Made by a program: the position numbers and the translations under genes. From positions 128,001 to 192,000 of the forward strand of contig CAVUMN010000001.1 of the NCBI GenBank assembly GCA_963742735.1: a stretch of DNA of 64,000 bases, written 5' to 3'. A model generated the notes under the pieces. That model was not told where the DNA came from and made no database searches. It saw only the letters and a program-made list of their open reading frames with translations. Source of the stretch: an uncultured Actinomycetes bacterium. Lineage in GTDB: Bacteria; Actinomycetota; UBA4738; JBBDTT01. Below, piece after piece: positions 960 through 23,551 of this stretch (positions are counted from its first letter, which is position 1; each line of letters starts with the position of its first letter).

Positions 960-1847
960 ATGGGAAGTGCGTTCGTCATCACCCTCCGCGAGGGTCTGGA
1001 GATCGCCCTCGTCCTCGCCATCCTCCTCGCCTACCTGAACAAGATCGACCGCCGGAGCGACCACCGCAAGGTCTGGCTCGGCGCCGGGGCCGCGATGGCC
1101 ATCAGTGTGATCGCGGGCGCCGTGATCTTCATCGTGGCCCAAGGACTCTCCCACCGCGCGGCGGAGGCCTTCGAGGGCGTCGCCTCCCTCGTGGCGGTCG
1201 GCTTCGTCACCTGGATGATCTTCTGGATGCGCCGCCATGCCCCGACGATCAAGGGCGAGCTCCAGGGCCGCGTCGACGCCGCGCTGTTCTCCGGCTCGGC
1301 CATCGCCCTGCCCCTGATCGCCTTCTTCGTCGTGGTCCGCGAGGGTCTCGAGACGGCCCTGTTCCTGTTCAGCGCGTTCCGGGCCGGCGAGGTGGATCCG
1401 ATCGTGCGCACCGCCGGTGCGGTCCTCGGGATGGTCGTCGCCGCGGTCCTCGGCTACGCGTTCTATCGCGGGGGCATCAAGCTCAACCTGCGCACGTTCT
1501 TCCGGGTCACCGGCGTGCTCCTGATCCTCATCGCCGCCAGCCTGATCAGGTACGGCTTCCACGAGCTCTACGAGGCCGGGGCCTTCGAGTTCCTGGCCGG
1601 GACGTTCCTCCTGGAGAAGGTGCCCGTGATCGGGATCATCTCGAACCTGCCCTCCAAGGTGCTCGTCGGGCTGAACGGCAACCCGAACTGGCTCGAGTTC
1701 GCCGGATGGCTCGGGTACGTCGCGGTGGTCGGGACCCTGTTCCTGCGCTCCGGCAAGGCCGCGGGACGGGCCACGGAGGCTCCGGCGGAGGCGCCTGCGG
1801 CGGCTTCCGAGGCCCAGCTGGTTGCCCAAGAGGAGACCCGCGGGTAA
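960..1847 (+). CDS. efeU: FTR1-family iron permease (EfeU-like)
   Basis: Two REGxE motifs (LREGLE, VREGLE), about 7 TM segments; ATG at 960 preceded by GGGGAG. Confidence 0.9.
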   Translation: MGSAFVITLREGLEIALVLAILLAYLNKIDRRSDHRKVWLGAGAAMAISVIAGAVIFIVAQGLSHRAAEAFEGVASLVAVGFVTWMIFWMRRHAPTIKGELQGRVDAALFSGSAIALPLIAFFVVVREGLETALFLFSAFRAGEVDPIVRTAGAVLGMVVAAVLGYAFYRGGIKLNLRTFFRVTGVLLILIAASLIRYGFHELYEAGAFEFLAGTFLLEKVPVIGIISNLPSKVLVGLNGNPNWLEFAGWLGYVAVVGTLFLRSGKAAGRATEAPAEAPAAASEAQLVAQEETRG

Positions 1848-1850
1848 CAT
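1822..1850 (+). promoter_or_regulatory. sigmaA-type promoter of gltB, overlapping the efeU 3' end
   Basis: TTGCCC (1822-1827), 17 nt, TAACAT (1845-1850). Confidence 0.55.
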
Positions 1851-1856
1851 TCCCTC

Positions 1857-1983
1857 CCACACCACATATCCGAGGAGCGACGGCGCTTCGCCCGCGGGCG
1901 GGGCGTTTTGCTATCTCGGAGCGAATATCTGATCGGCAACGAGGCCGGGCGACCGCCCGGCCTTTTCGCGTCCAGGAGGCAAC
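1857..1983 (+). promoter_or_regulatory. gltB 5' leader: putative ANTAR-responsive transcription attenuator
   Basis: GGAGC[GACGGC]GCTTC (1874-1889) and TCGGC[AACGAG]GCCGG (1933-1948), each overlapping the 5' arm of a GC-rich stem followed by TTTT (1883-1909; 1942-1966); RBS AGGAGG follows. Confidence 0.7.
1942..1966 (+). terminator. Intrinsic terminator directly upstream of the gltB RBS
   Basis: AGGCCGGGC-GACC-GCCCGGCCT followed by TTT. Confidence 0.75.
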
Positions 1984-4900
1984 GTGACGTTCGCGTACCA
2001 GCGAGACGAACGAGACGCGTGCGGCATCGGCTTCGTGGCCGACGCCGAGGGCCGGTCCTCGCGCGCGATCGTCCGGGCGGGCATCGACGCGCTGACCCGC
2101 GTGCGGCACCGCGGCGCGCTGGCCTCCGACGCGAAGACCGGGGACGGAGCCGGCCTCCTCCTCCCGCTGCCGCCGAAGCTGCTCGCGGCGTGGGTCGGCG
2201 CCGAGCGCGACGACCGGCTGGGCCTGGCCATGGCGTTCCTCGATGCGTCCGAACCGGGGCCGGGCCGGGCGGCCATCCAGGCCGCCCTGGAGGCGGAGGG
2301 AATCGAGGTCCTGGGCTGGCGCGACGTTCCGGTCGACCTGGACGCCCTCGGCGATCAGGCCCGAGGGTCCATGCCGGCCATCGTCCAGGCGGTCCTGCGG
2401 TCCCCGACCTCGGATCTCGAGGACGCCGAGCGGCGGGCGTTCCGGGCCCGCAAGCGAGCCGAGGCCGCCGCCCCCGAGGGCCGGTTCTACCTCCCCTCGC
2501 TGTCGTTCCGGAGCGTCACCTACAAGGCCCTGTGCGCGGCCGACCAGCTCGCGGCGTTCTATCTGGACCTCCAGGACGAGCGTTTCGAGGCGCCGTTCGC
2601 GATGTTCCACCAGCGGTACTCGACGAACACCACGCCCACGTGGGAGCGGGCCCAGCCGTTCCGCCTGCTCTGCCACAACGGGGAGATCAACACCATCCAG
2701 GGCAACGTGAACCTGATGGGAGCGCGCGAAGGGCGCCTGGGGGCGGGCGACCTGGCCCCCGAGGACCTCCTGCGGCCGGTCATCGACGAGGCGGGATCCG
2801 ACTCGGCGATGCTCGACAACCTGGTCGAGCTCCTGATCCGCGGAGGGCGCGACGCGCGCCACGCCCTGGCGATGGCCGTCCCCGAGGCCTGGGAGGGCAT
2901 GCCCGGCCTCACTGACGACGTCCGGGCGTTCTATCGCTATCACGCCGCGCTGATCGAGCCGTGGGACGGGCCGGCCGGCCTGGTGTTCACCGACGGGATC
3001 GGGATCGGCGCCACGCTCGACCGCAACGGCCTCCGGCCCCTTCGGTACGCGATCTGCGACGACGGCCTGGTGGCCTGCGCGTCCGAGGCCGGAGCCGTGG
3101 ACGTGTCCGGCCACGGAACCGTCCGCCGGGGCAAGCTCGGGCCCGGCCAGATGCTGTGGGTCGCCCCGGGCGAGGGCGTCTTCGAGAACCCCGAGATCAA
3201 GCGGGGCCTCGCCGCCCGGCGGCCGTACGCCGAGTGGAACGAAGCGCACCTCCGGCCGGCGTCCACCGGCGAGCCCGTGGAACGGCCCTCGGACCACCTC
3301 GTGGAGCGCCAGGTCGCCCACGGCTACACGAAGGAAGAGATCACCGTCGTCGTCCGCCCGATGGCGATCGACGGCAAGGAGACCACCTCCTCGATGGGCG
3401 ACGACACGCAGCAGGCGGTACTGGCCGAGCGAGCGCGGCCGGTCCCCCACTACCTGCGTCAGCGGTTCGCCCAAGTCACCAACCCGCCGATCGACCACCT
3501 CCGTGAGCGGCTGGTCATGTCCGTGAGCGTTCGCGTGGGCCCCCGGCACCCGCTGCTCTCCGAGGCGCCCGAGGCGGCCGGCCTGATCGAGCTCCCCTCG
3601 TTCCTCCTGACCCCGGAAGGCCTCGAGCGCCTGGCCGCAGAGGCGCCGTGGCCGGCCGTCACCCTGGACGCCACGTTCCCGGTCTCCGAGGGTCCCGCGG
3701 GCCTTCGGGCGGCGGTGGACCGGATCGGGGAGGAGGCCGAGCGCGCCGTTCGCGACGGCGCGGGGATCGTGGTGGTCTCGGACTGGGACGTGAGCCCGGA
3801 ACGCGCGCCGGTCCCCTCGGTCCTGGCCGTGGGCGCGGTCCATCACCGGCTGGTTCGCGCCGGGCTGCGGACGCTGGCCTCGATCGTCGCGGCCACCGAC
3901 GAGCCCCACGACGTCCATGCGGTCGCCTGCCTGGTGGCCTACGGCGCCGAGGTCGTCTGTCCCCGGCTCGTCCTGGAGACCATCGCGGACCTGTGCCTGG
4001 AGGGCCGCATCGGTGGCGACAACCCACCGGCCGCGGAGGCCCAGGGGCGGTTCCGGGAGGCGGTCGAGGACGGGGTGCTGAAGGTCATGTCGAAGATGGG
4101 CATCTCCACCGTCGAGTCCTACCGGAGCGCGCAGATCTTCGAGGCGGTGGGGCTGGGGCCGGAGGTCATCGACGTGTGCCTGACGGGAACCCCCTCGCCG
4201 CTGGGCGGGGTGGGGTTCCCGGAGATCGGCGCCGACGTCCTGGAGCGGCACGCGGCGGGATTCGCCGCGGCCGCCGCCCTGACCAACCCCGGGTTCATCA
4301 AGCATCGGGCGGGCGGCGAGTACCACATGAACAACCCCGACGTCGTCCAGTCCCTGCACGACACGCTGGGCGTCGACGACGTGGCCGCCGCGCGGACCGA
4401 GGAGGGCCACGAGGTCCCCGAGATCGCCCACAGCCTGCAGCGCGCGGTCCGGACCGAGGACTGGAACGCATACGAGACGTTCGCCGCGCTGGTCAACGAT
4501 CGTCCTCCGTCGGAGCCGCGCGACCTCCTCGAGCTGTCCCCCGCGTCGGGACCCGTGCCCGTGGACGAGGTCGAGCCCATCGAGGCGATCACCCGCCGGT
4601 TCTCCACCGGGGCGATGTCCCACGGCGCGCTGTCGGCCGAGGCGCACGAGACCCTGTCGATCGCCCTGAACATGATCGGCGGACGGGCGAACACCGGCGA
4701 GGGCGGCGAGGACCGCTCCCGCTACCGCGACCACCGCAACTCCGCGATCAAGCAGGTCGCCAGCGGGCGATTCGGGGTGACGCCGGAGTACCTGGCCCAC
4801 GCCGCCGAGCTCCAGATCAAGATGGCCCAGGGGTCCAAGCCCGGCGAGGGCGGCCAGCTCCCCGGGAACAAGGTCACCCACGAGATCGCCACCCTGCGGC

Positions 4901-6444
4901 ACACGACTCCCGGGGTCGCCCTGATCTCCCCGCCGCCCCATCACGACATCTACTCGATCGAGGACCTGGCTCAGCTGATCTACGACCTGAAGCAGGCCAA
5001 CCCCTCGGCGGACGTCTCCGTGAAGCTGGTGGCCACCGACGGCGTTGGAACGATCGCCGCGGGTGTGGCGAAGGGACTCGCGGAGATCGTGCACATCGCT
5101 GGAGCCGACGGCGGGACCGGCGCGAGCCCGCTGTCCTCGATCAAGCACGCCGGCCTCCCGTGGGAGGTCGGCCTGGCCGAGACGCAACAGATGCTGGTCG
5201 ACAACGGCCTGCGGGCCCGCATCCGGGTGCGCGTGGACGGCGGGTTCAAGACCGGCCGCGACGTGGTCGTGGCCGCGCTGCTCGGCGCCGACGAGTACTC
5301 GTTCGGGACCGCGGCCCTACTGGCGGAGGGCTGCATCATGGTCCGGACCTGCCACCGGGACACTTGCCCGGTGGGCATCGCCAGCCAGCGGCCCGAGCTC
5401 CGGGCCAAGTTCAACGGCACCCCCGAGATGGTCGCCAACTACCTTCGCTTCGTCGCCGAGGAGACCCGGCGCATCCTGGCCTCGCTCGGTCTTCGATCGC
5501 TGGACGAGGCCGTGGGCCGGGTCGAGCTGCTCCGGCCTCGCGTCACCGGCAACCCGCGGGCCGACGGGCTCGACCTCCGGAGGCTCCTGGCCGACCCCGG
5601 CGAGGGTCCGCGGCGATTCGAGGCGCCCGTAGCCCTCCAGAAGATCCGATCGGACCTGGGAGACCGCGTCGCGGCGGAGGCCGTCCCCGCGCTGCGCGAG
5701 GGACAGGTCCTGGGACTCTCCTACGCCATCACGAACGGCGACCGGTCGGTCGGGGCGCGGCTGGGCACCGACCTGGCCCGCGAGTTCGGCGACCGGCGGG
5801 CCCCCGGCCGGGTCCGGGTGTCGTTCGACGGGCAGGCCGGGCAGAGCTTCGGGGCGTTCCTCGCCGACGGGGTCGAGTTCCACCTGACCGGGGAAGCCAA
5901 CGACTACGTCGGCAAGGGGATGGCCGGCGGCCGCATCGTGATCGAGCCGCCCCCCGGCGACGCCGGCGATCCCCACCTGGTCGGCAACACCGTGCTCTAC
6001 GGGGCCACCGGAGGACAGCTGTTCTGCGCCGGCCGGGCCGGGGAGCGCTTCGGCGTCCGCAACTCCGGCGCGGTCGCGGTGATCGAGGGCGTGGGCGACC
6101 ACGCGTGCGAGTACATGACCGGAGGCGCCGTGGTCGTGCTCGGCCCGGTGGGTCACAACCTCGGGGCCGGGATGACGGGAGGCGAGGTCTACGTCTACGA
6201 CCCCAGCGACACCATCGTGGGTCGGCTGAACCCACAGCTCGTGGAGGCCCGCCGCCCCACCCAGGCCCAGATCCCGTCGCTGCACCGGCTGGTCGAGCGC
6301 CACGAGCACCTGACGGGATCCGCACGCGCCGGGGCTCTGCTCGCGGACTGGGAGAACGAGTCCCCCCGGTTCTGGCGCGTCGTCACCAAGTCCGAGGTGG
6401 CGATGCTCGAGGCGGCCTTCGAGGGGACCCTCGCGCGGGCCTGA
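1984..6444 (+). CDS. gltB: Glutamate synthase large subunit
   Basis: ERDA/CGIGF Ntn amidotransferase start, HQRYSTNT, HNGEINT, FAQVTNPPID, IKQVASGRFGV, KPGEGGQLPG, 3Fe-4S motif CIMVRTCHRDTC, C-terminal GXGXG beta-helix; 1486 aa. Confidence 0.98.
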   Translation: MTFAYQRDERDACGIGFVADAEGRSSRAIVRAGIDALTRVRHRGALASDAKTGDGAGLLLPLPPKLLAAWVGAERDDRLGLAMAFLDASEPGPGRAAIQAALEAEGIEVLGWRDVPVDLDALGDQARGSMPAIVQAVLRSPTSDLEDAERRAFRARKRAEAAAPEGRFYLPSLSFRSVTYKALCAADQLAAFYLDLQDERFEAPFAMFHQRYSTNTTPTWERAQPFRLLCHNGEINTIQGNVNLMGAREGRLGAGDLAPEDLLRPVIDEAGSDSAMLDNLVELLIRGGRDARHALAMAVPEAWEGMPGLTDDVRAFYRYHAALIEPWDGPAGLVFTDGIGIGATLDRNGLRPLRYAICDDGLVACASEAGAVDVSGHGTVRRGKLGPGQMLWVAPGEGVFENPEIKRGLAARRPYAEWNEAHLRPASTGEPVERPSDHLVERQVAHGYTKEEITVVVRPMAIDGKETTSSMGDDTQQAVLAERARPVPHYLRQRFAQVTNPPIDHLRERLVMSVSVRVGPRHPLLSEAPEAAGLIELPSFLLTPEGLERLAAEAPWPAVTLDATFPVSEGPAGLRAAVDRIGEEAERAVRDGAGIVVVSDWDVSPERAPVPSVLAVGAVHHRLVRAGLRTLASIVAATDEPHDVHAVACLVAYGAEVVCPRLVLETIADLCLEGRIGGDNPPAAEAQGRFREAVEDGVLKVMSKMGISTVESYRSAQIFEAVGLGPEVIDVCLTGTPSPLGGVGFPEIGADVLERHAAGFAAAAALTNPGFIKHRAGGEYHMNNPDVVQSLHDTLGVDDVAAARTEEGHEVPEIAHSLQRAVRTEDWNAYETFAALVNDRPPSEPRDLLELSPASGPVPVDEVEPIEAITRRFSTGAMSHGALSAEAHETLSIALNMIGGRANTGEGGEDRSRYRDHRNSAIKQVASGRFGVTPEYLAHAAELQIKMAQGSKPGEGGQLPGNKVTHEIATLRHTTPGVALISPPPHHDIYSIEDLAQLIYDLKQANPSADVSVKLVATDGVGTIAAGVAKGLAEIVHIAGADGGTGASPLSSIKHAGLPWEVGLAETQQMLVDNGLRARIRVRVDGGFKTGRDVVVAALLGADEYSFGTAALLAEGCIMVRTCHRDTCPVGIASQRPELRAKFNGTPEMVANYLRFVAEETRRILASLGLRSLDEAVGRVELLRPRVTGNPRADGLDLRRLLADPGEGPRRFEAPVALQKIRSDLGDRVAAEAVPALREGQVLGLSYAITNGDRSVGARLGTDLAREFGDRRAPGRVRVSFDGQAGQSFGAFLADGVEFHLTGEANDYVGKGMAGGRIVIEPPPGDAGDPHLVGNTVLYGATGGQLFCAGRAGERFGVRNSGAVAVIEGVGDHACEYMTGGAVVVLGPVGHNLGAGMTGGEVYVYDPSDTIVGRLNPQLVEARRPTQAQIPSLHRLVERHEHLTGSARAGALLADWENESPRFWRVVTKSEVAMLEAAFEGTLARA

Positions 6445-6466: not shown

Positions 6467-6919
6467 ATGGCGACGGATCCGTCCGAGAACCCCCCGCCCG
6501 AGGGCGCGACGGCCGAGCAGATGCTCGCCCTGGCCAACGGCCTCCTCCCCGGGACCCTGATGGAACGGTTGGAGCTGGAGTTCCTCGAGGTGGGGACGCG
6601 CCGGCTGCGAGCGAGGATCCCCGTGAAGGGCAACACCCAGCCGTACGGATTGCTCCACGGCGGCGCCACGGCGGCGCTGTGCGAGACGATCGCTTCGTTC
6701 GGCACGGTATACGTGGCCGGTGTCGACAAGGTGGCGACCGGGGTGGAGCTCAACGTGAACCACATCCGCGCGGTTCGCGAGGGCTTCATCACGGCGACCG
6801 CCGTGCCGCTGCACGTGGGGCGAACCACGGCGGTCTGGGACATGAAAGTTCACGACGATGACGGCCGTCTGGTGGCCGCGAGTCGCCTCACCCTCGCCAT
6901 CCGCGACTCGAAGGCGTAG
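6467..6919 (+). CDS. PaaI/hotdog-fold thioesterase (MenI/DHNA-CoA thioesterase-like)
   Basis: QPYGLLHGGATAALCET motif, GVELNVNHIR, LHVGRTTAVW. Confidence 0.88.
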   Translation: MATDPSENPPPEGATAEQMLALANGLLPGTLMERLELEFLEVGTRRLRARIPVKGNTQPYGLLHGGATAALCETIASFGTVYVAGVDKVATGVELNVNHIRAVREGFITATAVPLHVGRTTAVWDMKVHDDDGRLVAASRLTLAIRDSKA

Positions 6920-10964: not shown

Positions 10965-11999
10965 TCAAACGGCCTCCAGGGCGAGGTCGGCCAGCCGTTC
11001 CCCGATCAGGGGCGCGAACTTGAACCCGTGGCCGCTGCAGGGTGACCCGACGACGATCCTGCCGTGGCGCTCCAGGACGAACCGGCCATCGTCGGTGTTC
11101 GTGTACAGGCACGTCTCCGCGCGGGTCGGGACCCCGTCGGCTCCGGGGAACCGCTCGCGGATCCACGCGCCGACCCGCGCCACGGACGCCGCATCCGGCT
11201 CGCCGCGGAGATCCGGATCGATCCCGGGGCCGGCCTGGTGCTGTCCGGCTTTGATCCCCTCCCCCGGACTTCGCAGCGCGTAGATCGCCGGCGCGTCCCA
11301 GTCCACGATGGCCGGCGCCCGGTCGGGCTCGGGCACCGGGAAGTAGGCCACGGTCTCCCGGGTGGGCGTGACCGGAAGGTCGATGCCGGAGCGGGACAGA
11401 AGCGGTCTCGCCCACGCCCCGGCCGTGACGACGGCGACCGCGCCGTCGATCCGGTCCTCCGTCTCGAGGGTCACCCGCACCCCGGAGTCCGCCGTCTCGA
11501 TCCGCGCCACTCCGGTGTCTTCGCGAATCTCGGCGCCCGACCTCACCGCGCCTGCGGCCAGGGCCCGCCAGGCTGCGTCGGCCGCGACCGTCGCCGCATC
11601 CGGCTGGAATAGGGCCTCACCGCGGACGGCGACGCCGAACCGCTCGATGACCTCGCCCGGCGGAAGGAGCTCGAAGGCGGCCCCGGCCTCCTCGAGCGCC
11701 GCGGCGTGTGTGGGCACCATGGTCCCCACATCGAGCCCGCCGGTGGGCGTGAGCAACGCCTCGCCCGACTCGTGCTCCAGCTCCCGCCACAGCCGGAGGG
11801 CGTCCATCGCCATCCGGACGTAGCCGGCCTCGTGATACGAGTACCGGAAGATGCGCGAGGGGCCGTGGCTCGACCCGTGGTCGTGGCCGATCGCGAATCG
11901 CTCGAGGAGCACCACCCGCCGTCCTCGGGAGGCCAGGGCCCGGGCCGTGGCGCTGCCCATCACGCCCCCGCCCACCACGACGACGTCGTAGGCGGCCGC
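10965..11999 (-). CDS. solA: FAD-dependent amine oxidase, SolA/monomeric sarcosine oxidase family
   Basis: YDVVVVGGGVMG, GSSHGPSRIFR, ETCLYTNT, CSGHGFKFAP. Expected start after GAGGAG reads GCG (11999-11997), not GTG. Confidence 0.85.
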   Translation of the reverse strand, partial: AAAYDVVVVGGGVMGSATARALASRGRRVVLLERFAIGHDHGSSHGPSRIFRYSYHEAGYVRMAMDALRLWRELEHESGEALLTPTGGLDVGTMVPTHAAALEEAGAAFELLPPGEVIERFGVAVRGEALFQPDAATVAADAAWRALAAGAVRSGAEIREDTGVARIETADSGVRVTLETEDRIDGAVAVVTAGAWARPLLSRSGIDLPVTPTRETVAYFPVPEPDRAPAIVDWDAPAIYALRSPGEGIKAGQHQAGPGIDPDLRGEPDAASVARVGAWIRERFPGADGVPTRAETCLYTNTDDGRFVLERHGRIVVGSPCSGHGFKFAPLIGERLADLALEAV

Positions 12000-12001
12000 G
12001 G

Positions 12002-12719
<718 letters not shown>

Positions 12720-12722
12720 CGA

Positions 12723-13535
12723 CTAGCCCGCCTCGTCGGCGGCCTGGCGGCCGAGGTACGCCTCGATCACGCGCGGGTCGCGCTGGATGGCTGCCGGTTC
12801 TCCCTCGGCGATCTTCTCGCCGTAGTCGAGGACCGCCACGCGGTCGGAGATCCCCATCACGACCTTCATGTCGTGCTCGATGATCAGGATCGTGATCCCC
12901 CGTTCCCGGATGCGCCCGATGAGCTGCATGAGCTTGGCCTTCTCCGTCGGGTTCATCCCGGCCGCGGGCTCGTCGAGGAGCAGCAGCTTCGGCTTGGTCG
13001 CCAGCGCCCGGGCAATCTCCACCCGGCGCTGGTCGCCGTAGGAGAGACTCGAGGAGATCTCGTTGGCGAACCGGTGGATGCCGACGAAGTTCAAGGTGTC
13101 CTCGGCGTCCTGGTGGCCTTCCCGCTCCTCGCGTCGCATCTTTGGGGTCCGGAAGATCGCCGCGAGCACGCCCTGCGTGTGGTGCGCGTCCGTCCCGACG
13201 ATCACATTCTCGAGGGATGTCATGTTCTGGAACAGCCGGATGTTCTGGAACGTGCGGCTGATCCCGAGCTTCGTGACCTGGTGCGGCTTCACGCCGCTCG
13301 GCACGAACAGGGCGGTGCGCTTCGTCGCGACGATCTCCGTCCCGTCGAACACGATGCTGCCGGAGGTCACCGGGTAGATCGCGGTGATCAGGTTGAACAG
13401 GGTGGTCTTCCCGGCCCCGTTCGGCCCGATCAGCCCGAAGATCTGCCCTTCCTCGATGGAGAAGGACACATCCGAGACCGCGGCGAGGCCGCCGAACTGC
13501 TTCGAGGCCCCCGAGATCTCCAGGATCGGGCTCAT
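12723..13535 (-). CDS. livG: Branched-chain amino-acid ABC ATPase LivG
   Basis: [55 protein letters not shown]. Confidence 0.95.
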
Positions 13536-14788
13536 CCGCCCTCCTGCGCGTCGTACACCTGCTCCTCGACGACGGCGCCCTTGAGCTCGGCCTTCCGTCG
13601 CTTCGATGGAACCAGGCCCTGCGGCCGGAAGATCATGATCACGACGAGCGCGAGGCCGAACACGAAGAACCGGTAGGACTGAAACTCCCGGAAGATCTCG
13701 GGCACGACGACGACCAGGCCGGCGCCGACGATCGCCCCCGCGATCGATCCCATCCCCCCGATGACCACCGCGGCCAGGATGAGGATCGACTGAATGATGG
13801 TGAAGAAGCCGGGAGTGATCGAGTTGATCTGCTCGGCGAACACCACGCCCCCCACGCCGGCCGTGCACGCGCCGATGACGAAGGCGGCCAGCTTCATCCG
13901 CACCACCGGCACGCCCATGGCGGCGGCGGCTACCTCGTCCTCGCGGATCGCCACCCACGCGCGTCCGACGCGGCTGCGGTCCAGGAGCGTGATCGCCACG
14001 ATCCACAGGACCACCAGGACCAGCAGCAGCCAGTAGTACTTGTTGTCCAGGAAGGTCTTCCACTGGAGCTCCAGCGGGCCGATGTCGATCGCCGGGTGTG
14101 GGATGTTCGAGATGCCCTGGGGCCCTCCGGTGACGGACCCGAGGTTGTTGGCCGTCACCCGGACGATCTCCCCGAACCCCAGCGTGACGATGGCCAGGTA
14201 GTCCCCGCGCAGCCGGAGCGTGGGCGATCCGAGGAGGATCCCGGCGAACACGGCCACGACGATCGCGGCCAGGAGGATCAGCCACATCAAGGCATGCCAC
14301 TCGGGCTCCGGGACGAACCCCTCGGTCCGCTTGACCGTCTGGGCGTAGGTCCCCGCGCCGGTCAGGAACGCCGCCGTGTAGGAGCCGATCGCCCAGAACG
14401 CGACGTACCCGAGGTCGAGGAGGCCGGCGAACCCAACGACCACGTTCAGCCCGAGGGCGAACAGGGCGAAGAGGGCGAACCTCGACAGCGTGCCGCCGCT
14501 CGTGGCCCGGAGCATCCACCCGGGGAGATCGAACCATTGCTTCAGCAGCGGCAGGATCGCCAGGACCGCGATACCCACGACCCCGATCACCGGCAGGACC
14601 CACCGCCGGCGCGGCTCGATCCACGCCTGGACGCCCCGGCGAGCGATGCCGGCGGGCGAGAGGGCCTTGCGGACCCCCGCCCCCGCCCGCTGAGAGACCG
14701 CCAGGCGAGCGTCGGCGGCCCTCCGCTGCCATCGCGTCCAGGGACGGACCCGGCGCCGGGGAGGGCGACGCGGGCCAGGGGCGCTCAT
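13532..14788 (-). CDS. livM: Branched-chain amino-acid ABC permease LivM
   Basis: [51 protein letters not shown]. Confidence 0.95.
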
Positions 14789-15774
14789 CAGGACCTCACC
14801 CGTTCACCGAGGATGCCGCTGGGCTTGAACATCAGCACGGCGACCAGGACCACGAACGAGATCGCGGTCTCCCAATGGGTGCCGAAGCAGGCCCCGCCGT
14901 ACTTCTCCCCGAGGCCGAGGAGAACGCCTCCCAGCATGGCGCCCCGGATGTTCCCGATGCCCCCCAGCACCGCCGCCGAGAACGCCTTGATCCCGAGGAT
15001 GAACCCGATCTGCCAGTGCGACGCTCCGCCCAGGAACACCAGGAACAGCAGGCCCGCGGCCCCGGCCATGATCCCGCCGATGAAGAACGTGGTCACCACG
15101 ACGCGGTCGATGTTGACCCCCATCATCGACGCGGCCTCGGGATCCTGGGCCACGGCGCGGATCCCACGCCCGATCCGGGTCCGGTTCACGAACCGATCGA
15201 GCAGGAAGAGCATCCCGAGGGCGACGCCGACGACCAGCACGTGCTTGTTGTTCACGGTCGTGCCGAAGACGGAGAACAGCCGCTCGGTCTCGACGAATCG
15301 CGGTACCTGACGGGGAGCCGGCCCCTGCAGGTTCGGGAGCGTCCAGAAAAGAAGCGCGTGCCGCCCGTCCATCAGCGCGAACAGGTACTGGATGGCCAGG
15401 GACGCCCCGATCGCGCTGATCAGGAACGACAGCCGAGGGGCGCCCCTCCGGCGCAGGGGACGGTACGCGAAGCGTTCGATCGTCAGGGCGGTGACGCCGG
15501 AGGAGAGCGACGCGGCCACCAGCACGCCGAGGAAGACCAGGATCAGCGTGGCCCCGTGGAGGGCCGTGGTCACCCCGAACCACTCCTTGAGGGCGTGGAG
15601 GCTGACCACGGTCGAAACCATGAACACCTCGGAGTGCGCGAAGTTGATGAGCTGCAGCACCCCGTACACCATCGTGTAACCGAGGGCGATCATGGCGTAG
15701 ATGGAACCGGCGGTCAGACCGTTGACCGTCTGGTCCCAAAACTGGCTCGTCAGTCCGTCGAAGCAGCCGTCCAT
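14788..15774 (-). CDS. livH: Branched-chain amino-acid ABC permease LivH
   Basis: GSIYAMIALGYTMVYG, INFAH, ERFAYRPL, KAFSAAVLGGIGN. Confidence 0.95.
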   Translation of the reverse strand: MDGCFDGLTSQFWDQTVNGLTAGSIYAMIALGYTMVYGVLQLINFAHSEVFMVSTVVSLHALKEWFGVTTALHGATLILVFLGVLVAASLSSGVTALTIERFAYRPLRRRGAPRLSFLISAIGASLAIQYLFALMDGRHALLFWTLPNLQGPAPRQVPRFVETERLFSVFGTTVNNKHVLVVGVALGMLFLLDRFVNRTRIGRGIRAVAQDPEAASMMGVNIDRVVVTTFFIGGIMAGAAGLLFLVFLGGASHWQIGFILGIKAFSAAVLGGIGNIRGAMLGGVLLGLGEKYGGACFGTHWETAISFVVLVAVLMFKPSGILGERVRS

Positions 15775-15788
15775 GGCCTCAGTTCATC

Positions 15789-15838
15789 CGGACAGGGAGG
15801 GAGGGCAGGCCCCCGAAGGCGCCTGCCCTCCCTGTCCG
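15789..15838. other. Intercistronic stem-loop after the SBP gene (mRNA stabiliser or partial terminator)
   Basis: CGGACAGGGAG(GGAG)GGCAGGC ... GCCTGCCCTCCCTGTCCG inverted repeat between livK and livH. Confidence 0.6.
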
Positions 15839-15852
15839 TCGCTCCGGTGGAT

Positions 15853-17107
15853 CTACTCTCCGAGCACCTGCACCGCGTTGCCCAGGTTGGTCAGCGACAA
15901 CTCGCCGTCGGCCGTCGACTCGACCTCGTAGAAGAAGTAGAGCTCCTCGGCCTCGAGTCCCAGCTCGTGGGTGTCGGGGTTGAAGTAGAAGTCCTTCGCC
16001 TCCCCGTCGTACTGGGCGTCCTCGCTGGTCACGCCGTCGAGGTACTCCTTGATCCCGGTGCGGATGTCCTCCGGGGTCTCGGCGCCTCCCTCGATGGCCT
16101 GCTTGATGCCCTCACCGATCAGGCCGGCAGCGTCGTAGCCCTCCGCGGCGTAGATCGCCACGCTGAATCCCTCAGAGCCGACCTCCGTCTGGTACTTCTG
16201 GGTGAAGTCCGAGCTAGATGTTGCTCGGCGCCAGGAGCAAGGCTCCCTCCGCAGCCGGCCCGGCCAGGTCGAGAAGCGACGAGGACACGGATCCGTCACC
16301 CGAGATGAGCTGGATGTCCAGCTCCGCGTCGGCTGCCTGGCTGAGGAACGGCCCGCTGTCGACGTCGTACCCGCCGAAGAACAGGGCGTCCGCCCCAGAC
16401 TCCTTCACGTCGGTGATGATCGACGAGAAGTTCACCGTGGTACCGGTGTTGATCGCGGGCTCGGGGATTCCGGTCTTGCCGGCGATCGTGATCCCGGCCT
16501 CCTTGGCGGCCGCTTCCACGGCCTCGGCGAGCGGCTGCCCGTAGTCGGTCGTGTCGTGCAGGATGTAGAGCGACTCCGGCTGGATCACCTCGGCCACCCA
16601 ACGAGCGGCCAGCGAGCTCTGGAGCCCGTCGTGCCCGATCGTCCGGTACCAGTAGTCCCAGCCGAACTCCCCCAAGTCGACCGCGGTCGCCGAGGCCGTG
16701 ACGAACGGGATCCCCGCGTCGTTGTAGGTGTCACCGCTCGCCCGCGACTCACCCGAGAACGCCGGACCCATGATGGCGACCGTGTTTGGGTCCTCGGCGG
16801 CACCCTGCGCCACCGGCGGAGCCTGGTCACCGCTGCCCTGGGTGTCGGCCTGCTCGAACGTGATCGTCGCCGGATAGCCCTCCTCGGCGTTCAGCTCGTC
16901 GAAGCGGATCTGCGCCGACTGCATCGACGGCAGGACCAGCCCGTTCGCGCCACCCGTCCAAGCACCCTGGCCGTAGACGGTGACCTCGATGCGGTCGTCT
17001 CCGCCAGGAGTGCCGCCCGTACCGGGCTCATCGTCGCCGCACGCGGCGGACACCAGCGCGAACACGGCCAGTATCGCTACGAGCGAAAGCCACTTTGGCT
17101 TCTTCAT
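15853..17107 (-). CDS. livK: Branched-chain amino-acid ABC substrate-binding lipoprotein (apparent frameshift at about 16216)
   Basis: Lipobox SAAC, GPAFSGES, ASATA, YGQPLA, FFGGY; the frame after ...APSNI shifts by one base into SSDFTQKY...YAAEGYDAA. Confidence 0.85.
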
Positions 17108-17176: not shown

Positions 17177-17773
17177 TCAGGCGTCGAGATCCCCGTCGAT
17201 GACCTTTGTGGCAACGTCCTTCATCGGCAGCCGGCGGTCCATCGCGGTCTTCTGGATGAACCGGAACGCGTCCTGTTCGCTCATCTGGTACCGGTCCATG
17301 AGCATTCCCTTCGCCCGATCCACCACCTTTCGCGTCTCCAGCCGCTCGGAGAGGTCTCCGACCTCCGCCTCGAGGGCCTGCATCTCCTGGTACCGGGCCA
17401 CCGCGATGTCGATCGCGGGCACCAGGTCGCTCTTCTGGAAGGGTTTTACGAGGTAGGCCATCGCTCCGGTTTGCGCGGCCCGCTCCACCAGGTCCTTCTG
17501 GCTGAACGCGGTCAGGATGAGCACGGGGGACAGGTGCTCCTCGGTGATGCGCTCGGCGGCGGTCAAGCCGTCCAGGCCGGGCATCTTGATGTCCATGACG
17601 GTGAGGTCGGGACGCAGGTCCCGGGCCAGGCGCAGGGCGGTCTCCCCGTCGCCGGCCTCGCCGACGACCTCGTACCCCTCCTCCTCGAGCATCTCGCGCA
17701 GGTCGAGGCGGATGAGGGCCTCGTCCTCGGCGATCAGGATGCGGGTGGGGCTGCCCTCCGTGCCCTCGCTCAC
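17177..17773 (-). CDS. pdtaR: ANTAR-domain response regulator (PdtaR/AmiR/NasT family)
   Basis: REC domain AEDEALIR...MDIKMPGLDG...LTAFSQ...YLVKPF plus ANTAR ETRKVVDRAKGMLM...AFRFIQKTAMDRR; synteny with tRNA-Leu and polA. Confidence 0.93.
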   Translation of the reverse strand: MSEGTEGSPTRILIAEDEALIRLDLREMLEEEGYEVVGEAGDGETALRLARDLRPDLTVMDIKMPGLDGLTAAERITEEHLSPVLILTAFSQKDLVERAAQTGAMAYLVKPFQKSDLVPAIDIAVARYQEMQALEAEVGDLSERLETRKVVDRAKGMLMDRYQMSEQDAFRFIQKTAMDRRLPMKDVATKVIDGDLDA

Positions 17774-18060
17774 CCGGCCTCCGCGAGGGCAAGCAGGAGC
17801 TTGTCCTGCTCCTCGACCAACGCGGCGATGAGCGTCTCCTGCTCCCCGACGAGGCGCTCGATGCGGCGGTGGTCGTCCGCGGCGACCTGGAACTCGCGGT
17901 CCGCCAGCGGGGTCTCCGCGACGAGCATGCGCACGCGGGCCTCCTCCAGGACCGAGTCCTGGAAGGCGAGCTGCTCCCGCAGGATCGACAGCTCGGTCCG
18001 GGCCCGGCCGATCTCGTCGGAGAGCGAGGTGAGACGGCGCTTGGCGGTGCTTCCCGTCAT
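17770..18060 (-). CDS. Small coiled-coil hypothetical protein translationally coupled to pdtaR
   Basis: 96 aa with heptad pattern (MTGSTAKRRLTSLSDEIGRARTEL...VAETPLADREF...); GTGA overlap with the pdtaR start; AGGGGG before ATG. Confidence 0.75.
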   Translation of the reverse strand: MTGSTAKRRLTSLSDEIGRARTELSILREQLAFQDSVLEEARVRMLVAETPLADREFQVAADDHRRIERLVGEQETLIAALVEEQDKLLLALAEAG

Positions 18061-18175: not shown

Positions 18176-18261
18176 TGCCGGGGACGGGATTCGAACCCGC
18201 ATGGGCTTTCGCCCAATCGGTTTTGAGCCGATCGCGTCAAACCAGATTGCGCCACCCCGGC
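18176..18261 (-). tRNA. tRNA-Leu(CAA)
   Basis: GCCGGGG acceptor stem, ATCGG-CTCAAAA-CCGAT anticodon arm, long variable arm TGGGCGAAAGCCCA, GGTTCGAATCC T-arm, discriminator A; CCA not encoded; -10 TAGACT at 18273-18268. Confidence 0.96.
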
Positions 18262-19045: not shown

Positions 19046-19806
19046 TCACTCGAGGGCGGTTCGGAACTCCTCAACGAGTCCGACTACGGCGCTGAGGTCC
19101 CCCTCCAGCAGCCTGGCGACGATCGCGCTGCCGACCACGACCCCGTCGGCGAACTCCCCCGCTTCCTTCGCTTGGTCGGGCGTGGTGATGCCGACCCCGA
19201 CCAGCAGCGGCTTGGTCGTGAGCGGGCGGAGGGCTTCGACGACCTCGCGGGCGGTTCCCTCGAGCTTGCCGCGAGCCCCCGTGACGCCGTAGGTCGAGAC
19301 GCAGTACACGAATCCCTCCGAGCCTTCGGCCACGAGCTTCAGGCGGTCCGCGTCGGTCCCCGGCGCCGCGAGGAACACGGGCACCACCTCGGCCGCCGCC
19401 GCGCGCCCGCGCCATCCGCCGGCCTCGTCGACCGGCAGGTCGGGGACGATCACGCCGACGACCCCGGCCTCCCGGGCGGCGGCCAGGAACCGGTCCTCGC
19501 CCATCGCCAGCACGGGGTTGTAGTAGGTCATCACCACCGGGGCCGGGATCCCCGACTCGCCGATGGTCTCGAGGATCGCCTCGGGACGCGCACCCGCCTC
19601 CAGGGCACGTGTGGATGCCTGCTGGATGACGGGTCCGTCCATCACCGGGTCCGAGAACGGAATCCCGATCTCGATCGCGTCCGCCCCCGCCGCGTCGATG
19701 CGCCGGAGGAGGTCCGCGTCGACGCCCTCCAGTCCGCCCGTCACGTAGGGCACCAGGGCCCTCGCCCCGGCGTCGAGCCGGGCTCGCAGCCGCGCCTCGA
19801 GCGCGC

Positions 19807-19810
<4 letters not shown>
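19046..19810 (-). CDS. trpA: Tryptophan synthase alpha chain
   Basis: [40 protein letters not shown]. Confidence 0.97.
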
Positions 19811-20984
<1,174 letters not shown>

Positions 20985-20988
<4 letters not shown>

Positions 20989-21761
20989 GCCGTCCCCGCC
21001 CCGGTGAGCTGGCCAAGCAGGATCGCCGGGTCATCGGCGCGCATGAGGGCCTCGCCCACCAGGATGGCGTCCGCGCCGGCCGCCTCCGCCGCCCGCGCGT
21101 GCTCGGCCGTCGAGATCCCGCTCTCGAGCACACGAAGGCGATCGGCGGGGGCCCGGGCGAGCAGCCCCAGGGCGCGCTCGAAGTTCACCTCGAGGGTCTC
21201 CAGGTCGCGGGCGTTGACCCCGATCAGCTGCGCTCCCGCCTCCACCGCGCGCTGCAGGTCCTCCTCGGTGTGCACCTCCACGAGCGCGTCGAGTCGGGCG
21301 TCCTCCGCGGTCTCGAGCAGATCACGGAGCTCCAGATCCGACACCGCCGAGGTGATGAGCAGGACGGCGTCCGCTCCCTCCACCCGCGACTCCACAACCT
21401 GAGCGGGGTGGACGACGAAGTCCTTGCGAAGCAGGGGGACGTCGGCGCTCCTGCGCGCCAGGCGGAGGTCGGCCAGAGAGCCGTTGAAGTGCCGGGGCTC
21501 GGTGAGCACCGAGATCGCGCTGGCGCCGGCCCTCGCGTAGCCGGCCGCCTGCACCCCCGCGTCGACCTCGGCGATGTGGCCGGCCGACGGCGAAGACCGC
21601 TTGACCTCCGCGATCACGGCCAGCCGGTCTCGGCGGAGCGCGGCGGCGAAGCCACGCGGCTCGGGCGCGGTGACCAGGCGAGCCCGGAGCGACCCTTCGG
21701 GAAGGGGCCGCTCCACGAGATCGCGCCGGAGATCTTCGACGAGTCGGGAGAGGAAGCCCAA
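20985..21761 (-). CDS. trpC: Indole-3-glycerol phosphate synthase
   Basis: [43 protein letters not shown]. Confidence 0.97.
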
Positions 21762-21771
21762 GGGACGCGGA

Positions 21772-22269
21772 TTATAGGTCCGGGCCCCGGTCGGATCCCC
21801 CGAAGCGTCGCGAGGCGAGCAGGACCCCGGCGACCATGGCGACCAGGGCGCCCGCCAGGACGAGGAACGGCGCCAGCGCCGGTGAGACCGACGCGTCGGC
21901 CAGCTCGGAGATCGGCCGGTCGGAGGCTCGGGCGATCGCCTCCAGGGCCAGCGTGCGGATCCGGGCCAGGTGATACAGCCCCCCCATGAACGTGACGCCT
22001 GCGGCGAGCAGGGCCACGACGCCCAGCCAGACCGCGTGACGGGGCATCACCAACATCAGGATTCCGGCGACCAGGATGACGACGCCGGGGATCAGCGTGA
22101 GGTTGGCGCCGAGCTCGAGGCCCAGGACCTGCTGGCGGAAGTCCGGCGGGAACAACGCGAAGACGCGGGTGAGGTCCAGACGGACGGTCGCCCAAGGCAC
22201 CAGCGAACCCGCGATGGTGAGGAGTCCGCCGACGAGGACGCCGAGGGTGGCGCCTCCCGGACGGCGCAT
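21772..22269 (-). CDS. Membrane protein, Trp-biosynthesis-associated membrane protein-like (paralogue 3)
   Basis: 4 hydrophobic helices with GSLVPW motif after TM1; located between trpE and trpC. Confidence 0.65.
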   Translation of the reverse strand: MRRPGGATLGVLVGGLLTIAGSLVPWATVRLDLTRVFALFPPDFRQQVLGLELGANLTLIPGVVILVAGILMLVMPRHAVWLGVVALLAAGVTFMGGLYHLARIRTLALEAIARASDRPISELADASVSPALAPFLVLAGALVAMVAGVLLASRRFGGSDRGPDL

Positions 22270-22296
22270 GGCTGCGTGGCCCCGAGGACGCCCGGC

Positions 22297-22971
22297 CTAC
22301 GGGCCGGTCGGCGGTGGCGCCTCGCCCGGTCCCCCGGAGGACTCGGACGAAGGGGGGGCCGCAGGCGGAAAGCCCGTCGCGGTGGTGGGCGGCGGGGCAG
22401 GCGGCGCCATCCCGGGGGGCGAGGCCATGCCCGCCGGCGCTGCCGTCAGGGCCTCCGGGCGGCTTCCACGCGTCCCGAGCACGCCTCCGATGAAGACGAG
22501 CAGGCCGCCGGCGAGGATCGCGTACACGCCGAAGGCGGCCTTCACGTCGAAGACCTCCTTCAGCTGCGGCTCGATCGTCGATGCGGACTGGCCGCTGACC
22601 TTCGCGATCTCGTCGGCGAGCTGGCTGATCGTCGCGTCGGCGATGGCGAGCGTCTCCAGGATGCCGATCGCCAGCGCGGCCGCGCCGAGGACGATGGTGA
22701 GCACGGCCGCGGCCCGCCGGCCCTTCGACGACGCGCGCGAGAGGAGGATGCCACCGGCCCCCGCGGCCAGGATCCCGAAGGCCAGCACCACGTAGCCGAA
22801 CACGTAGTCGGTGCCCTTGAAGGTCTGGCTGGAGGCCGCCCCCAGCTCCGCGGGGAGGTCCGACGTGATCTTGCTCCACGGAAGCAGCGAGGACGCCACG
22901 AGCACCAGTCCGCCGACGATCGCCAGAATGGCCCCCACCGGGGATCGCCGTTCGATTGCCTCCACGCCCAT
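22297..22971 (-). CDS. Membrane protein, Trp-biosynthesis-associated membrane protein-like (paralogue 2)
   Basis: 4 TM, SSLLPW...G.D motif, Pro-rich tail. Confidence 0.7.
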   Translation of the reverse strand: MGVEAIERRSPVGAILAIVGGLVLVASSLLPWSKITSDLPAELGAASSQTFKGTDYVFGYVVLAFGILAAGAGGILLSRASSKGRRAAAVLTIVLGAAALAIGILETLAIADATISQLADEIAKVSGQSASTIEPQLKEVFDVKAAFGVYAILAGGLLVFIGGVLGTRGSRPEALTAAPAGMASPPGMAPPAPPPTTATGFPPAAPPSSESSGGPGEAPPPTGP

Positions 22972-22972
22972 G

Positions 22973-23551
22973 TCAGTCCTCCTCGGAGTCGTCGGCTGGT
23001 GGGGTCGGCGTATTCTGCGCGCCGTCCGGTGCCGCGTCCAGAACGCGAGCCGCCGCCGCGGCCGTGGAGGCGCGATCCCGGGCGCCGATCAGGCCGGCCA
23101 TGCCCCCGGCGGCGGCGAGCACCCCGCCGGCAGCCACGAGGATCACCCCGAACCGGGGTGACACGTCCGGGGCTCGCCGGCCGCTGAAGCCGAAGTTGAC
23201 ACCCGGACGGCGCGTGGCGTCCGCGGCCAGGCGCGAGCGAACCCCCTCGTCGCTCGCCGCGACGTAGATCGAGATCCCGGCCGCGGTGAGTCCACCCACG
23301 ATCGTCAGCACCGCGAGGAGCGCCCGCGCTCGGGGGCTCGACGCGGCCAGCATCAGCAGCCCGGCCGCGAGGGCGACCAGCCCGCCCGAGACCGTGAGGT
23401 TCGCGAACAGCTCCGTGCCGTTCACGTCCACCACCGCGCGTCTCGTGGTCACGCGAACCCACGTGAGGACCGAGCCGTACGCGGCGGCGCTGCCGCCGAC
23501 CGCGGCGAGGGCCACTCCCCATCGGACGAGGCGCGGCGACCCGGAGGTCAC
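22973..23551 (-). CDS. Membrane protein, Trp-biosynthesis-associated membrane protein-like (paralogue 1)
   Basis: 4 TM, GSVLTWVRV...V.G.E motif; overlaps the trpE stop, the position this family occupies in actinomycete trp operons. Confidence 0.75.
   Translation of the reverse strand: MTSGSPRLVRWGVALAAVGGSAAAYGSVLTWVRVTTRRAVVDVNGTELFANLTVSGGLVALAAGLLMLAASSPRARALLAVLTIVGGLTAAGISIYVAASDEGVRSRLAADATRRPGVNFGFSGRRAPDVSPRFGVILVAAGGVLAAAGGMAGLIGARDRASTAAAAARVLDAAPDGAQNTPTPPADDSEED

Follow-up and report, generated by a model that had tools for sequence, protein, structure and literature searches.

Two serial terminators with overlapping small hairpins in the gltB leader of an uncultured actinobacterium: a probable attenuator and a candidate target of PdtaR

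The window analyzed here, a 64,000 nt stretch of the genome of an uncultured soil bacterium of the Actinomycetes (GCA_963742735.1, contig CAVUMN010000001.1), carries gltB, the gene for the large subunit of glutamate synthase. In the leader of this gene two small hairpins (H1 and H2) were found, the 3′ arms of which are part of the 5′ arms of two terminator hairpins (T1 and T2, respectively), and the two structures of each pair are mutually exclusive. The leader is probably a regulated double transcription attenuator. Judged from the sequence, a PdtaR-type response regulator, the gene of which is located in the same window, has a nearly even chance of being the antitermination factor. The complete circuit, in which the PdtaS/PdtaR system would turn on glutamate synthase by antitermination at two serial terminators with one hexaloop hairpin each, is proposed with somewhat more reserve. 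The main route of nitrogen assimilation ends with glutamate synthase, the control of which in actinobacteria has been attributed to transcription initiation (GlnR, AmtR).

The gltB gene (1984-6444, plus strand, GTG start codon at 1984) encodes a protein of 1,486 aa with all four expected Pfam domains (GATase_2, Glu_syn_central, Glu_synthase and GXGXG), which scored 1617.7 bits against NF008730 (cut-off 1047). All leader features described below are located on the same strand. The promoter read from the sequence consists of the −35 hexamer TTGCCC (1822-1827) and, 17 nt after it, the −10 hexamer TAACAT (1845-1850), the TAA of which is at the same time the stop codon of an FTR1/EfeU-type permease open reading frame (ORF; 930-1847). 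From these hexamers we infer a transcription start near 1857. The promoter matches the consensus at 8 of 12 positions and was therefore not listed by a simple consensus scan, from which T2 was missing as well, while T1 was listed. The RBS AGGAGG was read at 1974-1979.

H1 (GGAGC[GACGGC]GCTTC, loop in brackets; 1874-1889) has a free energy of −6.4 kcal/mol and precedes the intrinsic terminator T1 (1882-1909; −20.0 kcal/mol), which consists of an 11-bp stem (1882-1907) with the loop CGCG and the tract TTTT (1906-1909). In the minimum free energy structure, the T1 hairpin extends to 1869-1921. H2 (TCGGC[AACGAG]GCCGG; 1933-1948; −6.6 kcal/mol) precedes the terminator hairpin T2 (1941-1966; −24.6 kcal/mol) with the core GGCCGGGC/GCCCGGCC (1943-1962) and the tract TTTT (1963-1966), which ends 7 nt upstream of the RBS. 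H1 and H2 are thus candidate antiterminators of T1 and T2. The coordinates given for the promoter, both hairpins and both terminators by the initial annotation, which had been made from the sequence alone, were all correct on re-reading. The fold of the RNA from 1850 to 1990 is dominated by T1 and T2 and has a free energy of −67.4 kcal/mol (z = −3.34); none of 200 shuffled sequences folded as well. Over all leaders of this type, the free energies range from −1.9 to −6.4 kcal/mol for H1 and from −2.8 to −8.4 kcal/mol for H2, compared to −20 to −28 kcal/mol for T1 and −19.5 to −28 kcal/mol for T2. Since H1 and H2 are far weaker than the terminators, termination would be the default, and the small hairpins could be maintained only with the help of a factor acting in trans.

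For the analysis of conservation, the gltB upstream regions of 41 related genomes of the same order and of 27 genomes of family f8 were read. The leader described above, termed type A, was identified in seven genomes belonging to seven genera and two families, namely in the genome of the window itself (G000, family f1) and in G008, G014, G023, G027, G056 and G059 (all from the sister family f8). Three of these (G014, G027 and G059) are flagged as unpublished; without them the type-A leaders are those of G000, G008, G023 and G056. The H1 core GC[RAMGGC]GC was found in all seven leaders, as was T1 in the form GGCGCUYC...GGGGCGYY with a U-rich tail and a stem of 10 to 13 bp. A second unit follows H1/T1 in six of the seven. 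In five of these six, H2 has the form GGC[RMCGNN]GCC and runs into T2 with the arms listed above, while the second hairpin of G023 is located at the same place with a loop of 3-5 nt instead of a hexaloop. The T2 stem is present in all six. A −10 motif of the form TANNNT was kept in all seven leaders (among them TAGACT three times, TACACT, TAAGGT and TAGAAT), the spacing between TTGNNN and the −10 motif is 17 nt in six and 16 nt in G014, and a GGAGG-type RBS is located 4-8 nt upstream of the start codon in all seven. The proposal of the initial annotation that gltB has a leader with its own promoter is therefore borne out across both families, as is the conservation of both hairpin-terminator units, the second one in six genomes.

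The GltB proteins of the type-A genomes are 63-68% identical to that of the window over 400 aa, so silent sites must be saturated. In spite of this distance, the sequence is retained in the H segments and in the lower parts of the terminator stems, whereas apical stems, loops and linkers vary. This pattern is expected from two mutually exclusive structures together with a factor that reads the sequence. A soil contig from a close relative shows seven itemised differences in the region 1858-1983, none of them within 1874-1909 or 1933-1966; one more difference is not itemised. The contig is of low depth, and contigs of a depth below 5 may hold errors. At the position of the −10 hexamer, where the contig end before 1858 is loose, it reads TACCAT.

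The conserved structures could in principle also be unregulated, with T1 and T2 serving as leaky terminators, insulators or stabilising 5′ hairpins and with H1 and H2 arising from chance complementarity. Tandem terminators are common after genes, and a co-directional FTR1-type gene ends just upstream of the leader in three of the seven genomes (G000, G008 and G059); the modest consensus match of the promoter and its absence from the scan likewise fit this explanation, as does the near absence of covariation in H1 and H2 described below. However, the gene upstream of the leader is divergent, with a PolA-like N-terminus, in G014 and G023, a different same-strand gene in G027, and ill-defined in G056. 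Because the upstream gene varies, T1 and T2 are not simply efeU terminators, and the possibility raised in the initial annotation that they merely end the efeU mRNA was not supported. In addition, the promoter hexamers and their spacing are conserved upstream of T1 in all seven genomes and the distance from the end of T2 to the RBS is 7-20 nt, so that every gltB transcript from this promoter crosses both hairpins. A promoter further downstream was considered and rejected, since the linker between T1 and T2 is short and unconserved in f8 and the 7 nt between T2 and the RBS leave no space for one. Drift would be expected of unregulated structures, in contrast to the pattern of conserved lower stems and 5′ segments of H1 and H2 with variable apices.

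The frequency of such structures elsewhere also argues against an unregulated origin. A strict terminator scan of the whole metagenome-assembled genome G000 (3.08 Mb, 71% G+C, 5 contigs) detected 131 terminator-like sites. Only six of them overlap with a mini-hairpin of 4 bp or more, the 3′ arm of which is located inside the 5′ arm of the terminator and the hexaloop of which carries a purine at position 1 and a G at position 4 (G4). Two of the six are T1 and T2, and the other four (out of 129 remaining sites) are unrelated G-rich loops. Outside the order, a terminator-like hairpin within 260 nt upstream of gltB was found at 1 of 80 loci, whereas 8 of 18 gltB leaders within the order have one by the same rule. 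The type-A leader itself was absent from these 80 wider, mostly distant loci (42-58% identity). Taken together, unregulated structures are considered an improbable explanation.

The element is also private to gltB in this lineage. When 151 genomes of the order were searched with a covariance model of the H1/T1 unit (R1), the seven leaders scored 44-64 bits, and no other match exceeded 33.3 bits. For the H2/T2 unit (R2), five leaders scored 44-53 bits and the next match in the same genomes reached 37.7 bits. The runners-up were plain terminators for R1 and terminators after stop codons for R2. When R1 was applied to a second draw of 151 genomes, intended to represent the class, no further copy was found; all of these genomes proved to belong to the same order.

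Each of the hairpins is also an inverted repeat at the DNA level, and an operator function was considered for this reason. The palindrome GAGCGAAGGCGCTC at about +1 to +14 and the downstream palindrome CCGGC-N6-GCCGG would then bind a protein acting as a repressor or roadblock, with only an incidental role for the terminators. H1 starts 6-7 nt past the −10 motif in the f8 leaders, which is a typical operator position, but in the genome of the window it is located 23 nt from the −10 hexamer. The half-sites comprise only 3-5 bp around a non-palindromic centre, and the second site is found 45-70 nt downstream of the start. Furthermore, the overlap of the two sites with a terminator arm keeps the same register in all genomes, which operators leave unexplained. 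This explanation is regarded as very improbable.

The pairing of both small hairpins is specific for the register. For H1, 91.7% of the alignment cells pair, compared to 12-67% with the partner slid, and for H2 the values are 80% and 17-50%, respectively. In T1, 95.2% of the cells pair across the seven leaders and one compensatory pair was found; the RNAalifold consensus of T2 has 10 pairs with one compensatory change (G-C to C-G in G014). H1 shows one compensatory pair (A-U to C-G, likewise in G014), and in the genome of the window matched insertions in both of its arms add a G.U pair.

Several results count against a regulated double attenuator. No compensatory pair was found in H2, and none of the covariation measures for H1, T1, T2 and H2 exceeded the shuffle control. 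The leader of G008 is a single unit consisting of H1/T1 only. Moreover, only three of the six T2 hairpins are followed by a U-tract (G000, G014 and G023), so that T2 may not terminate in G027, G056 and G059. It is the conservation and the geometry of the elements, and not covariation, that speak for a switch at the gltB leader. For the type-A leader, attenuation by a translating ribosome was rejected, as no ATG, GTG or TTG start codon is located between promoter and T1 in the three leaders read for this (G000, G008 and G056).

In the three genomes with T2 lacking a U-tract, the 3′ arm of T2 enters a CCUC(C) stretch that is able to pair with the GGAGG of the RBS (CCUCCG/CGGAGG in G059). T2 may act on translation instead of termination in these genomes. 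As a general mechanism, pairing of the 3′ arm of T2 with the Shine-Dalgarno sequence was rejected, because it is inconsistent between genomes.

The initial annotation had read the leader as a double antiterminator of the ANTAR class. Targets of ANTAR proteins have been described as pairs of stem-loops, with stems of 3 bp or more and with A at position 1 (A1) and G4 in their hexaloops, and the linker was set to 2-25 nt with one point variation allowed in a screen of actinobacteria (PMC8164766). In Enterococcus faecalis the eut linkers are 5-12 nt long, and induction is lost when the eutP linker is altered to 3 or 14 nt (PMC3369931). In the structure of EutV with RNA, one ANTAR dimer touches a single hexaloop, the minimal site; G4 is the sole base-specific contact while A1 is not contacted, and a methionine plug may exclude tetraloops. 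Isolated hexaloops each bind with similar affinity, and lengthening the linker by 20 nt abolishes antitermination in vitro (PMC8934654).

Compared with these rules, H1 has a stem of 3-5 bp in all seven leaders and H2 in five of the seven. G4 is present in all seven H1 loops and in all five H2 hexaloops, and the loop-closing pair of both hairpins is always C-G. The H1 loop is GAAGGC in five genomes, GACGGC in G000 and AACGGC in G014, and the H2 loops are AACGAG, AACGTC, ACCGAG and GACGAG (twice). The five H2 loops are unable to close further, since A or G at position 1 faces G or C at position 6. Both H1 and H2 overlap their terminators, whereas such an overlap is confined to the second hairpin in the known targets of the antitermination class. 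The ANTAR reading of the initial annotation was thus supported with regard to G4, the stems and the terminator overlap, but not with regard to A1 and the linker; the loop of H1 may be a hexaloop or a tetraloop. A1, proposed there as a feature of the leader, was found in only one of seven H1 loops and three of five H2 loops, with G in the others. An alignment of related leaders, by which it was to be judged, thus showed G4 to be kept, while A1 was mostly absent and covariation nearly nil.

Besides the scarcity of A1, further observations speak against recognition by an ANTAR protein. In six of the seven H1 loops, a G1-C6 pair is possible, which would leave a tetraloop. The linkers between H1 and H2 contain the rest of T1 and are 43, 36, 33, 30 and 51 nt long, outside the published 2-25 nt. 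Positions 2-6 of the H1 loop and 4-6 of the H2 loop form the bottom of the terminator stems (AAGG..CCUU and GAG..CUC). Conservation of G4 is therefore not independent evidence, as it needs no protein. In G000, the strict scan yielded no regulon beyond the gltB leader, only the four unrelated G-rich loops. Canonical dual A1/G4 hexaloops numbered 183 in this genome compared to 232-253 in shuffled sequences, that is without enrichment, and a count below the shuffles makes such a rule-based search uninformative. Because of the scarcity of A1, the linker length, the possible tetraloop of H1 and the shared loop bases, the leader was not filed as a canonical ANTAR-target RNA. Judged from its hairpins, it may nevertheless work like an ANTAR target with one hexaloop per terminator.

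The candidate regulator is encoded on the minus strand at 17177-17773. The protein of 198 aa comprises a receiver (Response_reg, PF00072) and an ANTAR domain (PF03861). Residues 7-193 matched the PDB entry 1s8n ('putative antiterminator'), which we take to be Rv1626/PdtaR, with an E-value of 5.9e-71, and EutV (6wsh) was matched with 3.2e-42. At the positions of EutV R142, E160, Y164 and M172 the protein has R, E, F and M. From these comparisons it is clearly a PdtaR orthologue that keeps the residues contacting G4, as anticipated when it was annotated as a PdtaR-like protein.

The genome G000 also encodes one PdtaS-like HisKA_2 kinase (contig C3; locus L169, 649-2088), the GAF-PAS sensor part of which matched PdtaS (2ykf) with an E-value of 1.3e-58. 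A second ANTAR protein of G000 (contig C4; locus L038, 6000-6596, plus strand) is likewise 198 aa long and 31% identical to the first. No receiver domain was detected in it by Pfam. Orthologues of this second type were found in families f5-f7 and in some f8 genomes; in the leader-bearing f8 genomes G008, G014 and G027 it was not found.

ANTAR proteins are not encoded by every genome of this order; genes for them were identified in 16 of the 41 genomes sampled. The types were assigned from hits fetched as loci, with the hits in G026 and G029 left unclassified. On this basis, the PdtaR type is restricted to f1 and f8 (G000, G001, G008, G014, G027, G042, G045, G046, G056 and G057). The PdtaS sensor domain was detected in 5 of the 41 genomes (G000, G008, G014, G023 and G027), which is exactly the type-A set of this sample. 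Within f8, 9 of 27 genomes have it, namely the six with type-A leaders as well as G045, G046 and G042. The gltB 5′ ends of G045 and G046 are cut by contig ends, and their congeners have type-A leaders. Counting only genomes with an assembled gltB 5′ region, PdtaS was found in seven of seven with the type-A leader and in none of 14 with other leaders. PdtaS, the kinase partner of the regulator, thus occurs together with this leader type. A PdtaR orthologue was found in five of the seven type-A genomes, and in G008, G014 and G027 it is the sole ANTAR protein found.

This distribution also contains points against PdtaR. The regulator was not found in G023 (89% complete) and G059 (93% complete), both of which have a full-length PdtaS, and in G042 both PdtaS and PdtaR are present although gltB was not detected. 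In the gltB tree, the f8 genes of type A are united in a single clade (support 83/92), next to which G000 is placed. The gltB genes of two f8 genomes without PdtaS belong to a different lineage; that of G039 is placed among f6 genes (100/99) and that of G053 in another clade. As the type-A gltB genes represent one lineage, the co-occurrence perhaps reflects one or two events only. Moreover, the known mycobacterial PdtaR targets act on translation, not on termination. The distribution thus amounts to co-inheritance and co-loss of PdtaS/PdtaR and the type-A gltB gene, which is suggestive but does not prove the link.

The leader could also be a regulated double attenuator controlled by a factor without an ANTAR domain, such as a different RNA-binding protein, a small RNA or a 30S subunit attached to the GAAGG and GAGG of the loops, with PdtaS/PdtaR merely shared by the lineage. 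Architecture and conservation would be equally expected in this case. The incomplete agreement with the ANTAR rules (A1, linker, possible tetraloop in H1), the single unit with which G008 works, the resemblance of GAAGG and GAGG to Shine-Dalgarno sequences and the restriction of the PdtaS co-occurrence to one gltB lineage all fit such a factor. On the other hand, no alternative candidate was identified. The Rfam scan of the whole window with gathering thresholds detected only tRNA, and a permissive scan of 1780-2020 gave nine chance-level matches (best E-value 0.11) without an ANTAR-target family. A metabolite-binding fold could not be accommodated in hairpins of 12-16 nt. In addition, G4, the C-G closing pair, the hexaloop size and the terminator overlap are exactly the features read by ANTAR proteins, and PdtaS is present in every leader-bearing genome. 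A non-ANTAR factor is therefore considered unlikely, although it carries more weight than the operator and the unregulated structures.

For PdtaR as the antitermination factor, we infer the following course from the arrangement of the leader. A promoter within the end of the upstream gene would start a leader RNA of about 127 nt at about 1857. By default, T1 and T2 would form and most transcripts would halt before gltB. The 5′ arm of each terminator could alternatively pair with a short segment upstream of it, giving a hairpin of 3-5 bp with a 6-nt loop. H1 would form first and, without the factor, be displaced by the 3′ arm of T1, so that transcription would stop near 1909. A phosphorylated dimer of the PdtaR-type regulator, driven by PdtaS, would bind the hexaloop via the flipped-out G4. 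Bound to the loop and the closing pairs of H1, it would carry the polymerase beyond T1. The same event would have to take place at H2 and T2, and gltB would be made only during continued activity of the regulator. Two such gates in series would result in a steeper response.

The gltB genes of families f6 and f7 have a leader of a different type (L005, L007, L010, L012-L015 and L017, from G012, G033, G006, G017, G029, G021, G037 and G026). There, an ATG located 11 nt after a TATACT-type −10 motif is the start of a nearly leaderless ORF of 16-19 codons, the stop codon of which directly adjoins a conserved hairpin (GGCGCGGGCGG...CCGCGCC). Behind this hairpin another one is located, which has a U-tract in G012, G033 and G006. 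This leader looks like a leader-peptide attenuator; its peptides have no obvious common run of regulatory codons. The gltB gene of the f8 genome G039, which groups with f6 genes as described above, has no more than the tail of the f6-type leader in front of it; this suggests gene replacement or transfer.

Downstream of gltB in the window, the next ORF (6467-6919) encodes a 4HBT thioesterase, and gltD is not adjacent. No match to the GltD-type domain Fer4_20 was found in G000 (88.9% complete). The gltB product may thus be a stand-alone, ferredoxin-type glutamate synthase.

The pdtaR-like gene is preceded by an ORF of 96 aa without a Pfam family (17770-18060, minus strand), the stop codon of which overlaps the GTG start codon of pdtaR. 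A similar ORF with a conserved ...AETPLADR... stretch precedes the PdtaR orthologue in nine of ten loci (not in G042). A tRNA gene (18176-18261, minus strand) is located just upstream of the promoter of the pdtaR operon. Directly downstream of pdtaR, within 10965-17107 on the minus strand, genes for a Liv-type ATP-binding cassette (ABC) transporter were found, encoding a secreted binding protein of the Peripla_BP_6 family (16214-17107) together with a permease (14788-15774) and an ATPase (12723-14732). An ORF of 584 aa (10965-12719, minus strand) combines a partial ABC ATPase (residues 22-108) with a full DAO domain of a flavin adenine dinucleotide-dependent oxidoreductase (245-579) and may be a fusion, a frameshift or the result of a miscalled start. 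In f8, a conserved purine-rich GGTGGAGA(G)AAAGGAGGG segment is located between pdtaR and the gene for the binding protein. No conserved hexaloop hairpin was found between these two genes in ten genomes. A trp cluster (19046-25557, minus strand) comprises trpA, trpB, trpC, a gene for a Trp_oprn_chp membrane protein and anthranilate synthase. The gltB-pdtaR-liv-trp neighbourhood presumably resembles one in other actinobacteria. The second ANTAR protein of G000 is AmiR-like with a degenerate receiver, and its neighbouring genes gave no clue to a partner sensor.

Structures of PdtaR have been solved, while the signal of PdtaS/PdtaR and its direct targets are poorly defined. Should the proposed circuit hold, the PdtaR family would have, in the gltB leader, its first target at the level of termination. 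The leader would also illustrate in nature the single hexaloop as the minimal ANTAR site and would link PdtaS/PdtaR directly to nitrogen assimilation. It would represent a compact, conserved and gene-specific candidate target, with which PdtaR could be tested using an RNA of about 130 nt and one protein. If ANTAR proteins are able to use one hairpin per terminator, a wider search pattern for ANTAR regulons would follow. If PdtaR is not the factor, the leader would still be a clean example of a protein-dependent double attenuator.

Searches of the literature on ANTAR proteins with glutamate synthase and on gltB with antitermination yielded only one prediction and no report of the gltB leader described here. 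In that study, ANTAR substrates were predicted at glutamate synthase genes of Desulfotomaculum reducens (Ramesh et al., 2012, Fig. 9A; PMC3369931). The glutamate synthase class had thus already been linked to ANTAR elements in 2012, and ANTAR control of this target class is therefore not new. The D. reducens prediction concerns a Firmicute and the canonical dual-hairpin model; what it shares with the gltB leader is the class of the target enzyme. New, if the link to PdtaR holds, would be the use of one hexaloop per terminator, the tandem units and an action of the PdtaR family on the termination of a nitrogen gene.

With the mycobacterial PdtaS/PdtaR system (Rv3220c/Rv1626), the gltB leader shares the orthologous regulator and kinase and small GC-rich hexaloops as targets. 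The reported mycobacterial and other actinobacterial targets are dual hairpins 2-25 nt apart, which are mostly located on the RBS or start codon, repress translation and belong to lipid and redox genes. With gltB, by contrast, a gene of nitrogen assimilation is concerned, and the hairpins of its leader overlap with terminators that precede the RBS. The actinobacterial survey reports few ANTAR RNAs before terminators (PMC8164766), and in a 2025 review the operon target of Rv1626 is listed as unknown, with inhibition of translation as the mode of action.

ANTAR control of a nitrogen operon via a leader terminator with A1/G4 hexaloops has been described for NasR/nasF, NasT and AmiR/amiE. These proteins sense through NIT domains or partners (NasS, AmiC), whereas here the candidate is a phosphorylated PdtaR receiver with PdtaS.

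The EutV/eut leaders of E. faecalis are similar to the gltB leader in that a G4 hexaloop hairpin overlaps the 5′ arm of a terminator, several terminators arranged in series are each to be overridden and the regulator is a kinase-activated REC-ANTAR protein, in the case of gltB a candidate one. They differ in having two hairpins 5-12 nt apart per terminator, of which only the second overlaps it, compared to one per terminator and 30-51 nt apart in the gltB leader. In addition, A1 is mostly replaced by G in the gltB leader, and its target is anabolic while that of eut is catabolic.

Unlike tandem riboswitches, the gltB leader contains no ligand-binding fold, in line with the empty Rfam result, and the sensor is presumably a protein. 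With tandem attenuators and riboswitches it shares two conditional terminators in series, an arrangement that should sharpen the response.

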